This document shows, piece after piece, positions 14,991-19,024 of a DNA stretch of 64,000 nt (the first letter of the stretch is position 1; every line of letters starts with the position of its first letter). Both the position numbers and the translations under genes were made by a program. The notes under the pieces were generated by a model. It made no database searches, was not told where the DNA came from, and saw only the letters and a list, made by a program, of their open reading frames with translations. The stretch is from Escherichia coli (lineage in GTDB: Bacteria; Pseudomonadota; Gammaproteobacteria; Enterobacterales; Enterobacteriaceae). Location of the stretch: NCBI RefSeq assembly GCF_044647545.1, contig NZ_CP172818.1, one strand, 5' to 3'.

Positions 14991-15022
14991 GTGGTGCCGG
15001 ATGCTCAAGCCGCATCCGGCGA
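14991..15022. repeat. REP-like palindromic element / terminator hairpin between fadM and queC
   Basis: GCCGGATGC ... GCATCCGGC inverted repeat typical of REP sequences. Confidence 0.65.
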
Positions 15023-15034
15023 CACCCGGAATAA

Positions 15035-15730
15035 TTAATTCAACCCGGTTTTCTGCTTCATCGCTGCCATCACCGTCGGTTTATCGGCCAGATAATGATT
15101 CAAACCGTTGGCGCGTAAATTACATGCCGCACAATGACCGCAACCGTCGCCTTTAATGCCGTTATAGCAGGTCAGCGTTTCGTTACGGACTAAATCCAGC
15201 TTGCCGTAATAATCTGCCAGCGCCCAGGTTTCCGCTTTATCAATCCACATCAGCGGCGTTTCAAAACGAATATCTTTCGCCATGCCTAAACTGACGGCAT
15301 GGTTTAGTGCTTTCACAAACTCATCGCGGCAATCCGGGTAGCCGGAGAAATCCGTTTCGCAGACGCCGGTAATTACGGCTTCTGCTTTTACCTGATACGC
15401 ATATATTGCCGCCAGCGTCAGGAACAAAATATTACGCCCAGGGACAAACGTATTCGGGATGCCATCGGCTTCAGGTTCATAATCAGGCACCGGAATGCTG
15501 TCACGCGTCAGGCTGCTGACCGCCAGCTCGTTGAGCAGCGTTACATCAAGAACCTTATGCGCGCGTGCTCCCAGTTTCAGCGCCAGTTCGCGTGCCACGT
15601 CGATTTCTGCGCGATGTCGCTGACCGTAATCGAACGTCACGCAATGGACTTCATCATATTGTTGTAATGCCTGCACCAGACAGGTGGTGGAATCCTGGCC
15701 TCCACTGAACACAACGACAGCACGTTTCAT
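15035..15730 (-). CDS. queC: 7-cyano-7-deazaguanine synthase (queuosine biosynthesis)
   Basis: 231 aa; N-terminal SGGxDS PP-loop, C-terminal Cys cluster (CGHCAAC). Confidence 0.95.
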
Positions 15731-15794
15731 AGATAATCCTGCTTGAACAATAAAAGCGTTATGGTAACGCCTGCGATGAACCCGGACCAGCTAT

Positions 15795-17495
15795 TCATTG
15801 CGACGGCGCGGGAAGCCAGGCTTCGGTAAATTCAAACCAGCCGCGCGGTGTCAGTCGCACACCGTTCACGCCGGGAGGGGCGCTAATGCGATAGTGATAG
15901 TTGAACAGCGGCGTCAGCGTCGCATCTGCCATTAACTGGCTAAAAACCGCTTTCAGGGCATTAAATCGGTTTTCCTCATCAGGCATTACTTGCACCGCGT
16001 CCAGTGTCGATTGCAAATGTGCATATGCTGGAGCGTCGAAAACATGTGGCCACAGTGGATCGCAACGCAGCCATTGCTCCAGGGTATATTCCGGTGCTTC
16101 GCCAATTAATCTGTCGCCCATCATGAGGTCTGCGTGTGCCAGTAGGGTCGTGTCGTCCCAGTTTTTTGCGTTATGAAAAATAATTGTAAGTTCACAGCCT
16201 TCCGCTGCCAGTGTCGCCTGTAGACGTTCTGCCATGGTATGAAGTTCTATCGGTAGGTGATAAACCAGCGTCAAGGTTTTCGGTAGTTTGACCTCATCCG
16301 GTACTTGCCATTGCGGAATAGTCCAGCCTGGCAGTAATGCATGACTGGCGGTGATCAGGTTTTCTCCGACTTCTAACGTTTGTAATAAACCGGATTGATG
16401 AATAATGGAGATCACTTTTCGCGCCTGCCAGAGGGACAGTCGGGGACTTTTGCGCAACGTTAAATAGCAAAAACCTAAACTGATGCCACTACTGACCTGG
16501 CTGACCCGTTGCAGCTCCTCCGGTTTGCCGATGGTGATTTGCACGGGATGCCGACAACTGGTTCCCAAATCTTTTTCGAAAAGCGGCGGAGTTATCCAGT
16601 ACTCAACCGCTTTAAGCAGCGGATGACGTAAATGGTAATAATCATGGCTTTCCAGGCGCACCAGCTCCGCTGTGAATTGTGTTAAGCGAAAAGGACCCGT
16701 GCCGATCAGTGGGAATTGCGGATGCGCCAGATGGCTGCAATAGCTCGCCAGCCGGTGCGCAAGCCAGTAATCAGGGCGATGTAAAAAGAAGGTCAGACAC
16801 TGCGGATGGGTGACTTCAATACGCTTCACGCTAATAAATAATTGATCCACTGCTGGCAGTTGTAACAGCATCAATAATCGCTGGTGTAAGTGTGAGGCTT
16901 TTACTGCATCGCCGTTATGCCAGTGTAGGGTTGAACGAAGATAAAAGTCCCAGCGTAACCCGTCAGTAGAGGTTTCCCAGTGATGCGCTAAATCGCCAAT
17001 CGGGCGCTGGGTATTATTATCGAAGCGGGTCAGGCCGGAAAATATCTGCCCGGCCAGATGCTGCTCGGCACGGCCGGGCAAAAAGCCCGGTTGTAGCGGT
17101 TCGAGCGGGCGATAGTAGGGAATACGCAACGTGGGCGTATCGTTTTGCCATTGTCCGCCCATAAACGGCTGTAACAGAGTGCGCAGCTCACCTGGGGCCA
17201 GTTGCGCCAGCTCCAGCACATCTTGCTGCTTTCCGGTTTCCAGCGCCTGTTCCATCATCGCATTGCGTAGCGATTCTGGCGTGACCAGAAAGCGTAATTG
17301 TCCGCGCTTTCCGCGTCCTGACTGCGCCTGCCACTCCAGCCATCCCGCCTCCTGTGCCTGGCGTAACAGCGTACGAACATGGCGTTCGCTGCAAAAACAG
17401 CGTTCGGCCAGTTCGCTGACTGTGACGGTTTGCGGCTTTCCGGCGGAAGGTTGCCACAGACGTTGATACTGGTTAAGACGGTTGAGCAGTCGCAT
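15795..17495 (-). CDS. ybaE: SgrR-family protein: N-terminal winged-HTH plus C-terminal solute-binding-protein-like domain (function unknown)
   Basis: 566 aa from ATG at 17493-17495 (MRLLNRLNQYQRL...); track ORF starts 5 codons upstream at a TTG. Confidence 0.88.
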   Translation of the reverse strand: MRLLNRLNQYQRLWQPSAGKPQTVTVSELAERCFCSERHVRTLLRQAQEAGWLEWQAQSGRGKRGQLRFLVTPESLRNAMMEQALETGKQQDVLELAQLAPGELRTLLQPFMGGQWQNDTPTLRIPYYRPLEPLQPGFLPGRAEQHLAGQIFSGLTRFDNNTQRPIGDLAHHWETSTDGLRWDFYLRSTLHWHNGDAVKASHLHQRLLMLLQLPAVDQLFISVKRIEVTHPQCLTFFLHRPDYWLAHRLASYCSHLAHPQFPLIGTGPFRLTQFTAELVRLESHDYYHLRHPLLKAVEYWITPPLFEKDLGTSCRHPVQITIGKPEELQRVSQVSSGISLGFCYLTLRKSPRLSLWQARKVISIIHQSGLLQTLEVGENLITASHALLPGWTIPQWQVPDEVKLPKTLTLVYHLPIELHTMAERLQATLAAEGCELTIIFHNAKNWDDTTLLAHADLMMGDRLIGEAPEYTLEQWLRCDPLWPHVFDAPAYAHLQSTLDAVQVMPDEENRFNALKAVFSQLMADATLTPLFNYHYRISAPPGVNGVRLTPRGWFEFTEAWLPAPSQ

Positions 17496-17594
17496 ATAAA
17501 CCCGGAACAATATTATTTAACTATTCACTATTACTTCCGTATATATCAGGTGATACTCAATCACTATTAACCGTGTCACAGAGTGGAGAAAGAA

Positions 17595-18413
17595 ATGGCT
17601 CGTCTGGCAGCATTTGATATGGATGGCACTTTATTGATGCCTGACCATCATTTAGGTGAGAAAACCCTCTCTACTTTGGCGCGGCTGCGTGAACGCGACA
17701 TTACCCTCACTTTTGCCACGGGGCGTCATGCGCTGGAGATGCAGCATATTCTCGGGGCGCTATCGCTGGATGCATATTTGATTACCGGCAACGGAACGCG
17801 CGTGCATTCTCTGGAAGGTGAACTTTTACATCGTGATGATTTACCTGCGGATGTCGCGGAGCTGGTGCTGTATCAGCAATGGGATACCCGAGCCAGCATG
17901 CATATCTTCAATGACGATGGTTGGTTTACCGGGAAAGAGATCCCTGCGTTGTTGCAGGCATTTGTCTATAGCGGTTTTCGTTATCAGATAATCGATGTCA
18001 AAAAAATGCCACTCGGCAGCGTCACCAAGATCTGCTTCTGTGGCGATCACGACGATCTTACACGCTTGCAGATCCAGCTATACGAAGCATTAGGCGAGCG
18101 TGCACATTTATGTTTTTCCGCCACGGATTGCCTCGAAGTGCTGCCGGTGGGCTGCAATAAAGGCGCTGCATTGACGGTGCTGACCCAACATTTAGGTTTA
18201 TCGTTACGCGATTGCATGGCCTTTGGTGATGCGATGAACGATCGCGAAATGTTAGGCAGTGTCGGTAGCGGATTTATTATGGGCAATGCGATGCCGCAAC
18301 TGCGCGCGGAGCTCCCGCATTTACCGGTGATTGGACATTGCCGAAATCAGGCTGTCTCTCACTATTTGACGCACTGGCTGGACTATCCACATCTACCTTA
18401 TTCCCCCGAATAA
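17595..18413 (+). CDS. cof: HAD-family phosphatase Cof (HMP-PP phosphatase)
   Basis: 272 aa from [14 protein letters not shown] (HAD motif I DxDGT); track ORF begins at upstream GTG. Confidence 0.92.
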
Positions 18414-18565
18414 CGAGATCCCTTCCAGCACCGGGCAATTGCCCGGTTTTTTTTGCGTTGAATTTGTCATTTTGTGCCGTGGTGCTTAAACCGCACAGAA
18501 TAAATTGTCGCGATTTCACCTTTAAAATAGAATTAAAAGAGAAAAAAATTCTCTGTGGAAGGGCT

Positions 18566-19024
18566 ATGTTAGATAAAATTGACCGTAAGCTGCTGGCCTT
18601 GCTACAGCAGGATTGCACCCTCTCTTTGCAGGCACTGGCTGAAGCCGTTAATCTGACAACCACCCCCTGCTGGAAGCGTCTGAAACGGCTGGAGGACGAC
18701 GGTATCCTTATCGGCAAAGTCGCCCTGCTGGATCCGGAAAAAATAGGCCTCGGCCTGACCGCCTTTGTGCTGATAAAAACGCAACATCACAGCAGCGAAT
18801 GGTATTGCCGCTTTGTCACGGTGGTTACCGAAATGCCAGAAGTGCTGGGGTTCTGGCGCATGGCCGGTGAATACGATTATCTGATGCGCGTCCAGGTTGC
18901 CGACATGAAACGCTACGACGAGTTTTATAAGCGTCTGGTAAACAGCGTGCCGGGGCTGTCGGACGTCACTTCCAGCTTCGCGATGGAACAGATTAAATAC
19001 ACCACTTCTTTACCCATCGAATAA
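18566..19024 (+). CDS. decR: Lrp/AsnC-family transcriptional regulator
   Basis: 152 aa from [16 protein letters not shown]; track ORF is 5'-extended by 76 codons. Also known as ybaO. Confidence 0.9.

Follow-up and report, generated by a model that had tools for sequence, protein, structure and literature searches.

We analysed a stretch of 64,000 nucleotides of the Escherichia coli chromosome (contig NZ_CP172818.1 of assembly GCF_044647545.1, hereafter the window) around ybaE, the gene of an SgrR-family regulator, and the short gap that separates it from the divergent gene cof. This gap carries a conserved, widely spaced inverted repeat embedded in a predicted cof promoter, with a geometry matching that of the sgrS promoter, which SgrR activates. 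On balance, and with modest confidence, we favour the reading that YbaE binds the site in the gap, activates the single-gene unit cof on sensing a small and probably phosphorylated metabolite, and also regulates its own gene. Judged from the sequence, cof is the most likely YbaE target; binding of YbaE to the site, a positive and not a negative effect on cof, control of its own gene and the nature of the ligand are inferred.

Architecture of YbaE and its relation to SgrR

The gene and the two domains of its product are the following.
15795..17495, minus strand: ybaE coding sequence, 566 amino acids plus stop (open reading frame translation, RefSeq annotation of the identical E. coli sequence, full-length homology to SgrR)
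17139..17477, minus strand: SgrR_N domain (residues 7-119), made up of a MarR-like winged helix-turn-helix and then a helical linker (Pfam, AlphaFold2, family conservation)
15798..17138, minus strand: C-terminal solute-binding-protein fold, residues ~120-566, cluster C, SBP_bac_5 type (Pfam, PDB sequence matches, Foldseek)

The annotated ATG at 17495 gives a 566-residue product starting MRLLNRL. A longer open reading frame of 571 residues initiated at a TTG was rejected, since this TTG lies within the conserved box 1 described below and, in other genera, does not share the reading frame of the ATG. A first reading of the DNA made without database searches (the sequence-only reading) had proposed that YbaE joins an N-terminal winged helix-turn-helix to a large periplasmic-binding-protein-like domain, and profile searches recovered both domains. 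Pfam SgrR_N (PF12793) matches residues 7-119 (E=3e-39, profile positions 3-115 of 115), and the peptide quoted in that reading, ELAERCFCSERHVRTLLRQAQEAGWLEW, corresponds to residues 28-55. The SBP_bac_5 match (PF00496, residues 165-303, E=7e-17) is partial, covering the first 157 of 368 profile positions, that is, the N-terminal lobe. The AlphaFold2 model, built on an alignment of 85 family sequences (pLDDT 88.9, pTM 0.84), opens with a winged helix of order H-beta-H-H-beta-beta (residues 1-70), which a helical linker (73-111) connects to a complete binding-protein fold of two lobes. Its first secondary structure elements are H2-14, E22-24, H26-33, H37-49, E53-56, E65-69 and H73-111, with pLDDT above 90 in the winged helix-turn-helix. 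Residues C35, R38, W52 and W55 and the wing G60-R61-G62 are invariant or nearly so among the 85 family members. Across the SgrR-family clades, both the GRG wing and the motif C(S/T)xRHxRxLL of the recognition helix are kept, which fits the GGAA core common to the DNA sites described below.

The best Foldseek matches of the model are NikA, DppA, MppA and CntA (E~1e-26 to 1e-28, TM(target) 0.66-0.70), the NikA and DppA alignments spanning ~510 columns of it; sequence matches in the PDB are NikZ, DppA and OppA only, all binding proteins. No SgrR-family structure was found in the PDB by sequence search, in which the N-terminal domain was unmatched, or among the best fold matches. The C-terminal ~450 residues of YbaE thus share their fold with the cluster-C periplasmic binding proteins (NikA, DppA, OppA, MppA, CntA), at 14-18% identity. 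Unlike these proteins, YbaE has no signal peptide, carries a fused DNA-binding domain and has no transporter partners. Neither a signal peptide nor a lipoprotein signal was detected: the N-terminus, MRLLNRLNQYQRLWQPSAGKPQ, is part of the winged helix-turn-helix in the model, and the highest Kyte-Doolittle mean over 11 residues is 0.57 within the first 55 residues, so that the SgrR architecture attributed to YbaE in the sequence-only reading holds. As its N-terminus is not hydrophobic, YbaE is a cytoplasmic protein, and its C-terminal fold is presumed to act as a ligand sensor.

YbaE aligns over its full length (residues 9-565) with E. coli SgrR, at 28% identity (BLASTP, E=3e-55). SgrR (b0069), the activator of sgrS-setA and alaC in glucose-phosphate stress, has the same two-domain architecture, and YbaE belongs to its family by its SgrR_N winged helix-turn-helix, its binding-protein domain without signal peptide and its full-length homology to a characterised member. 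The NCBIfam equivalog model of SgrR (NF010149), aligned to residues 8-564, scores 230.9 bits, below its cutoff of 476. The neighbours of ybaE are queC and cof, without the sgrS/sgrT and thiB...leuD synteny of SgrR orthologues, and the true sgrR locus lies elsewhere in the E. coli genome. Because of the 28% identity and of the score below the equivalog cutoff, we regard YbaE as a paralogue and not an orthologue of SgrR. The two loci are nonetheless laid out alike, each regulator gene being divergent from its target, or predicted target, over a short AT-rich gap. Unlike the sgrR locus, that of ybaE lacks sgrS, sgrT and setA, and the divergent gene encodes a protein and not a small RNA.

The ybaE-cof gap and its likeness to the sgrS promoter

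The elements recognised in and beyond the gap are listed from the ybaE side.
17498..17511, plus strand: box 1, AAACCCGGAACAAT, predicted to be the upstream half of the YbaE operator, 89-100% conserved per position
17521..17544, plus strand: central conserved block CTATTCACTATTAC, the probable -35 region, then box 2, TTCCGTATAT (17535-17544), with 17525-17544 conserved at 86-100%
17552..17557, plus strand: predicted cof -10 hexamer GATACT (consensus nATACT), with ATACT 99-100% conserved and aligned with the sgrS -10
17595..18413, plus strand: cof, 272 amino acids, hydroxymethylpyrimidine pyrophosphate (HMP-PP) phosphatase (Cof-type HAD-IIB hydrolase; NCBIfam, Pfam Hydrolase_3), predicted local target
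18430..18457, plus strand: intrinsic terminator after cof, a 7-bp stem with 6 GC pairs, then a T run (terminator scan)

The gap between the divergent genes, described in the sequence-only reading as AT-rich and about 100 bp long, spans 99 bp (17496-17594) with 33% GC, against 52% for the whole window. The HMP-PP phosphatase gene named on its far side does start at 17595: the product scores 553 bits with the Cof equivalog NF011705 (cutoff 336), the next-best model being YigL, and a ribosome-binding site GGAG stands at 17585-17588. The terminator after cof makes it a single-gene unit and the sole possible local target. We collected one genome per species, which gave 80 Enterobacteriaceae loci with YbaE proteins 66-96% identical. 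In all 78 loci with enough flanking sequence cof is divergent from ybaE, and queC follows ybaE in 80 of 80. The order decR-cof<->ybaE-queC is kept even in Edwardsiella tarda, whose YbaE is 46% identical.

Conservation was measured on 79 distinct intergenic sequences from Enterobacteriaceae and Edwardsiella, with the four-fold degenerate sites of cof and ybaE from the same genomes as neutral baseline (mean consensus frequency 0.57-0.61). Most positions of 17498-17557 are at least 95% conserved, a level reached by ~3% of the four-fold degenerate sites. The stretch (C)TATTCACTATTACTTCCGTATAT at 17522-17544 is conserved at 86-100% per position, with TTCCG at 100%, and the 10 nt between the first two conserved blocks and the bases flanking ATACT are freely variable. 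Two nucleotides separate box 1 from the start codon of ybaE, and in coordinates of the predicted cof promoter the box covers about -66 to -53. Box 2 is its inverted partner (CGGAA...TTCCG), 31 nt away start to start, or about three helical turns; the search for SgrR-box-like inverted repeats that had been suggested for 17496-17594 yielded one, in sgrS-like geometry. Edwardsiella keeps the motifs as AAATCCTGAACA...TTCACTATTAGTTCCG...GATACT. The window contains a single copy of the composite pattern GGAAC-N24-29-TCCSTATAT, and none of 100 shuffles contains it; taken separately, box-1-like matches are at chance level in the 64 kb and box 2 is unique.

Transcription of cof is predicted to start at about 17563-17565. 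A generic sigma-70 scan did not report this promoter, which has no good -35 hexamer; a poor -35 explains the miss and is expected of an activator-dependent promoter. ERIC-like elements of 120-280 bp are inserted in the gap in five species, always between the ybaE ATG and box 1, so that the conserved block keeps its distance to cof. At these five loci, which belong to certain species of Citrobacter, Raoultella and Enterobacter, the gap measures 217-382 bp, and the ybaE leader would lengthen accordingly.

Other candidate elements of the gap were discarded. A direct repeat of E. coli, TCACTATTA (17525-17533 and 17561-17569, 36 bp apart), was set aside as an operator because its second copy is not conserved outside Escherichia; this copy overlaps the predicted cof start, and other genera have CACAAGTTAAC there. 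By inspection, the conserved TCACA at 17576-17580 lacks the partner half-site of a CRP site at the required spacing, and a sigma-E-type promoter starting at GGAAC lacks a -10 hexamer at the required spacing. A structured RNA or riboswitch in the gap or cof leader was rejected, with nothing relevant in Rfam at E<=1 and a predicted leader of only ~30 nt; Rfam also reported no small RNA over 15000-18600.

We compared the cof promoter with the sgrR-sgrS gap of E. coli K-12 and four other taxa (five loci). Read from the CAT complementary to the regulator start, the two layouts are as follows.
sgrS promoter: CAT-AAAAGGGGAAC-tcctgtgcaaaagaCAGCAATTTTATT-TTCCCTATAT-taagtc-AATAAT-7 nt-+1
cof promoter: CAT-at-AAACCCGGAAC-aatattatttaaCTATTCACTATTAC-TTCCGTATAT-atcaggt-GATACT

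Both loci carry an AAAnnSGGAAC box at the regulator start, an inverted TCC(C/G)TATAT and a RATAMT -10 hexamer at matching distances. Counted upstream from the last base of the -10 hexamer, GGAA starts at 53 nt in either promoter and TTCC at 21 nt in sgrS and 22 nt in cof. The right box of sgrS is TTCCCTATAT, which gives the common form TTCC(C/G)TATAT. The sgrS hexamer AATAAT stands 7 nt upstream of the annotated sgrS 5' end, and its Kosakonia version, AATACT, is the form that the cof hexamer takes most often. Immediately 5' of GGAA, the base is C at ybaE-cof and G at sgrS. When the E. coli cof and sgrS promoters were aligned globally, the score was 13.5 (dinucleotide shuffles, 5.4±3.3; p=0.014), a value reached by 0.3% of GC-matched segments of the window. 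Taken alone, this likeness is suggestive, not decisive; it coincides exactly with the blocks conserved within each family.

Similar boxes recur in the wider family. Equivalents of box 1 stand at the start codons of sgrR (AAAAGGGGAAC), of a Vibrio SgrR-like gene (AAAGAGGAAAT) and of a Yersinia paralogue (AAAAGAGGAAC). Upstream of the SgrR-family gene of V. parahaemolyticus, presumed, not verified, to be the counterpart of DsvR (see below), the sequence reads CAT-AAAGAGGAAAT-N-GTTTCCTC. The inverted repeat takes the form GGGAA...TTCCC at E. coli sgrS, AGGAA...TTCCT at a Photorhabdus-like sgrR locus and CGGAA...TTCCG at cof. A paralogue 37% identical to YbaE (P0124) has a perfect 11-nt repeat, AAACAGGAACA-N22-TGTTCCTGTTT, that closely resembles box 1, and a Chromobacterium locus shows a GGAGA/TCTCC variant, then GATACT. 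We found an exact GGAA-N26-29-TTCC in 5 of 12 upstream regions of SgrR-family regulators (two each from the YbaE and SgrR clades included), for about 1% expected per locus. The base 5' of GGAA matches between the half-sites in 5 of 5 clades (G/G, C/C, A/A, A/A, A/A).

A further parallel comes from DsvR of Vibrio cholerae (VCA0578), the activator of zapC, which like YbaE is an SgrR-family member without an sgrS partner. Activation of PzapC by DsvR requires an 11-bp box that is present there and also directly upstream of the dsvR start (bioRxiv 10.64898/2026.04.01.715812). The requirement for this proposed box provides independent experimental evidence, at the preprint stage, and box 1 occupies the same position directly upstream of the ybaE start codon. 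DsvR differs from YbaE in being described as an SgrR homologue with a broad regulon; the V. parahaemolyticus protein that we examined is nearer to SgrR than to YbaE and is encoded in another genomic context, with no cof nearby.

Possible modes of action of YbaE

These observations suggest the following scheme. YbaE would be a cytoplasmic, ligand-sensing factor of the SgrR family whose winged helix, probably in a dimer, would contact a widely spaced inverted repeat. One half-site would be AAACC-CGGAA-C at 17498-17508 and its partner would lie in TTCCG-TATAT at 17535-17544. Bound there in the geometry of SgrR at sgrS, YbaE would activate the weak cof promoter (GATACT -10, no good -35) and probably repress its own divergent promoter. 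The NikA/DppA-like C-terminal domain would tune this activity to a small cytoplasmic metabolite, possibly a phosphorylated compound related to Cof substrates, for instance HMP-PP or a toxic analogue of it, or else a sugar phosphate or another phospho-vitamin, so that accumulation of the compound would induce the phosphatase that removes it. SgrR, through SgrS, raises YigL, a Cof-type HAD phosphatase. Since YigL is also the next-best family match of Cof, YbaE may sense a phosphorylated metabolite removed by Cof. A Cof-type HAD-IIB phosphatase would thus be the endpoint in both cases, YigL via SgrS for SgrR and, as proposed, Cof directly for YbaE. The claim of the sequence-only reading that YbaE acts on the shared gap is accordingly strengthened in silico, by the conserved operator-like repeat and the sgrS-like promoter geometry; the regulation itself keeps the status of a proposal.

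Several points weigh against this scheme. With its place between the -35 and -10 regions, the right half-site could serve repression or be a core-promoter element. The putative SgrR site at sgrS is deduced from the five-locus comparison, and the likeness to sgrS is by itself modestly significant (p ~0.01), for a pattern defined after the sequences had been seen. The repeat is not uniform: at sgrS of Salmonella, Kosakonia and E. kobei the right half is ATCCC instead of TTCCC, a right half-site is missing at the Yersinia paralogue, and the left half in Edwardsiella is TGAA. For ybaE itself, the minus strand of the gap offered no convincing conserved -35/-10 pair. The ligand proposal is inference only, by guilt by association; to our knowledge, even the ligand of SgrR is uncertain. 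The published ybaE phenotypes (Crp and carbon limitation, biofilm, lacritin peptide) do not point to cof, and searches of the literature turned up no binding, expression or transcription-start data for ybaE or cof.

The position of box 2 lends itself to the opposite sign of regulation, in which YbaE, as a classical local repressor, would hold down cof and itself from the gap site until released by its ligand. A protein bound between the predicted -35 and -10 usually blocks RNA polymerase, and SgrR represses its own promoter from the equivalent shared region. Yet a poor -35 with an nATACT -10, on which the generic scan is silent, is typical of activator dependence, and the geometry is that of the sgrS promoter, which SgrR activates. 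We therefore consider local repression rather unlikely.

We also regard as unlikely that the main targets of YbaE lie elsewhere in the genome, the gap site being chiefly autoregulatory and cof a bystander. DsvR controls dozens of unlinked genes, including zapC and genes for sugar uptake and pili. SgrR also activates the unlinked alaC, whose upstream region contains GAGTTCC, the reverse complement of GGAACTC, and the effects reported for ybaE in carbon limitation through Crp, biofilms and peptide sensitivity are not obviously tied to cof. Against this, the distance of box 1 is fixed to cof and not to ybaE despite the ERIC-like insertions, the conserved block runs through the cof-oriented -10 hexamer, and the ybaE-cof pairing is invariant; a wider regulon would in any case be compatible with cof as a target.

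A bolder form of the favoured reading, which we put forward as quite improbable and speculative, makes YbaE-cof and SgrR-sgrS sister copies of an ancestral module joining a phospho-metabolite sensor to a divergent detoxification gene. YbaE would then sense toxic or over-accumulated pyrimidine pyrophosphates (HMP-PP or the 2'-methoxy analogue derived from bacimethrin) or another phospho-vitamin, and induce Cof to control the damage. The common promoter plan suggests that regulator and promoter were duplicated together. If true, enterobacteria would have a stress response to vitamin antimetabolites that has so far escaped notice, possibly tied to Cof-dependent hemolysin output in uropathogenic E. 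coli.

The conserved blocks might instead be core-promoter elements or the site of another regulator, their resemblance to sgrS coming from descent of a duplicated module or from chance. The post hoc nature and limited significance of the promoter likeness leave room for this, the central block CTATTCACTATTAC has no sgrS counterpart, and the right half-site varies in other clades. A symmetric GGAA/TTCC pair with matching flanks is however found at five independent family members, where ~1% per locus would be expected, DsvR depends functionally on a box in the same position, and the blocks match neither CRP (by inspection) nor any Rfam family, so that we hold this explanation to be distinctly doubtful. 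Finally, we give practically no credence to the older annotation of YbaE as the periplasmic substrate-binding protein of an ABC transporter, a label still used in PMC5389662 and PMC12147183 and in line with a fold like those of NikA, DppA and OppA, as the protein has no signal peptide or hydrophobic N-terminus, begins with a high-confidence winged helix and is encoded between queC and cof without adjoining permease or ATPase genes.

Should YbaE indeed control cof, it would represent a second, protein-only branch of the SgrR paradigm, leading from phospho-metabolite stress to a phosphatase, and would provide a physiological trigger for Cof, an enzyme linked to HMP-PP turnover, bacimethrin resistance and hemolysin output. 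Cof has been described as an HMP-PP phosphatase that confers resistance to bacimethrin and is needed for full hemolysin output in uropathogenic E. coli (PMC5989160). A family-wide operator would also emerge, a GGAA/TTCC inverted repeat about three helical turns apart with C, G or A as specificity base.

Published observations, distant relatives and flanking genes

The gene is carried by almost every E. coli (5424 of 5426 complete genomes), which makes it a core gene, and the 2-kb region around it is 100% identical to numerous E. coli chromosomes. It is one of the remaining uncharacterised "y" regulators, in a family whose sensors are poorly understood. RefSeq already labels it "SgrR family transcriptional regulator" and gives the gene order in the window as fadM, queC (minus strand), ybaE (minus strand), cof (plus strand), decR and mdlA. 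Horler & Vanderpool 2009 (PMC2760817) placed YbaE, as a protein of unknown function, in "Clade 2" of the SgrR homologues, and advanced the general idea that such homologues target the genes divergent from them. With ybaE catalogued and annotated, and the hypothesis published in general form in 2009, our proposal is no surprise to specialists; what we add is a precise predicted operator and promoter, a family-wide site model and predictions testable at the level of single bases. Full-text literature searches (ybaE, b0445, SgrR plus cof) retrieved no functional study of ybaE. Induction of ybaE under carbon limitation is Crp-dependent, yet its promoter shows no Crp binding; the gene is also induced in biofilms under particular flow regimes, and a screen for mutants resistant to a lacritin peptide gave its knockout as a hit that was not validated.

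Proteins less closely related to YbaE (34-39% identity or less) occur in unrelated contexts and belong to other paralogue clades. The YbaE-like proteins of Pantoea (39%), Entomohabitans (37%) and E. cloacae (36%) were accordingly rejected as orthologues, their different genomic contexts marking them as paralogues. Members of Clades 3-7 of Horler & Vanderpool (P0123 of Pantoea, P0124 of Entomohabitans, P0127 of E. cloacae, P0150 of Yersinia) share the architecture of YbaE, and several of the genes in these clades adjoin or diverge from genes of sugar metabolism or transport. Unlike those of ybaE, their neighbours include GFO/IDH/MocA oxidoreductases, a phosphotransferase system EIICB, a TetR gene and a shikimate-dehydrogenase-like gene; cof is not linked to any of these paralogues. 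On a metagenomic contig (L093), two paralogues stand in tandem (P0125 and P0130; 2501-4177 and 4631-6295) directly downstream of fimbrial usher and adhesin genes; no GGAA/TTCC repeat was found upstream of either.

Both SgrR-family genes of E. coli adjoin thiamine-related genes, sgrR being directly upstream of the thiamine transporter operon thiBPQ (sgrR-sroA-thiBPQ; locus L082, 2517-4300) and ybaE beside cof, which may be a coincidence or the hint of an ancestral link. In E. coli SCPM-O-B-8794, ybaE has a premature stop after ~447 codons. Among the gene models (P0023/P0002), a cluster of 305 sequences corresponds to a 444-residue, N-terminally truncated YbaE without helix-turn-helix, and one prediction of 818 residues joins QueC, SgrR_N and the binding-protein domain. 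These altered E. coli models resemble artefacts of gene calling or sporadic cases of pseudogenisation.

No permease or ATPase genes adjoin ybaE, whose flanks are queC, cof and decR; mdlAB, further downstream, is a separately organised exporter. In the 64-bp ybaE-queC gap (15731-15794), a promoter-like pair, GCTGGTCG-N17-(G)TTACCATA (TACCAT), is kept across genera. A ybaE-queC operon or terminator was rejected: the terminator-like hairpin of E. coli at 15772-15754 is not conserved as a structure, the promoter-like pair being kept instead. On this sequence evidence queC probably has its own promoter, and ybaE may lack a terminator and so allow read-through. On the other side of the region, Salmonella arizonae carries between cof and decR an open reading frame of 351 residues, divergent from decR and absent from Escherichia (locus L081, 1975-3030), which we take to resemble the pyridoxal-phosphate-dependent cysteine desulfhydrase CdsH. 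Most other non-Escherichia loci have a similar ~1 kb extra between cof and decR, and this reading frame appears to have been lost in Escherichia.

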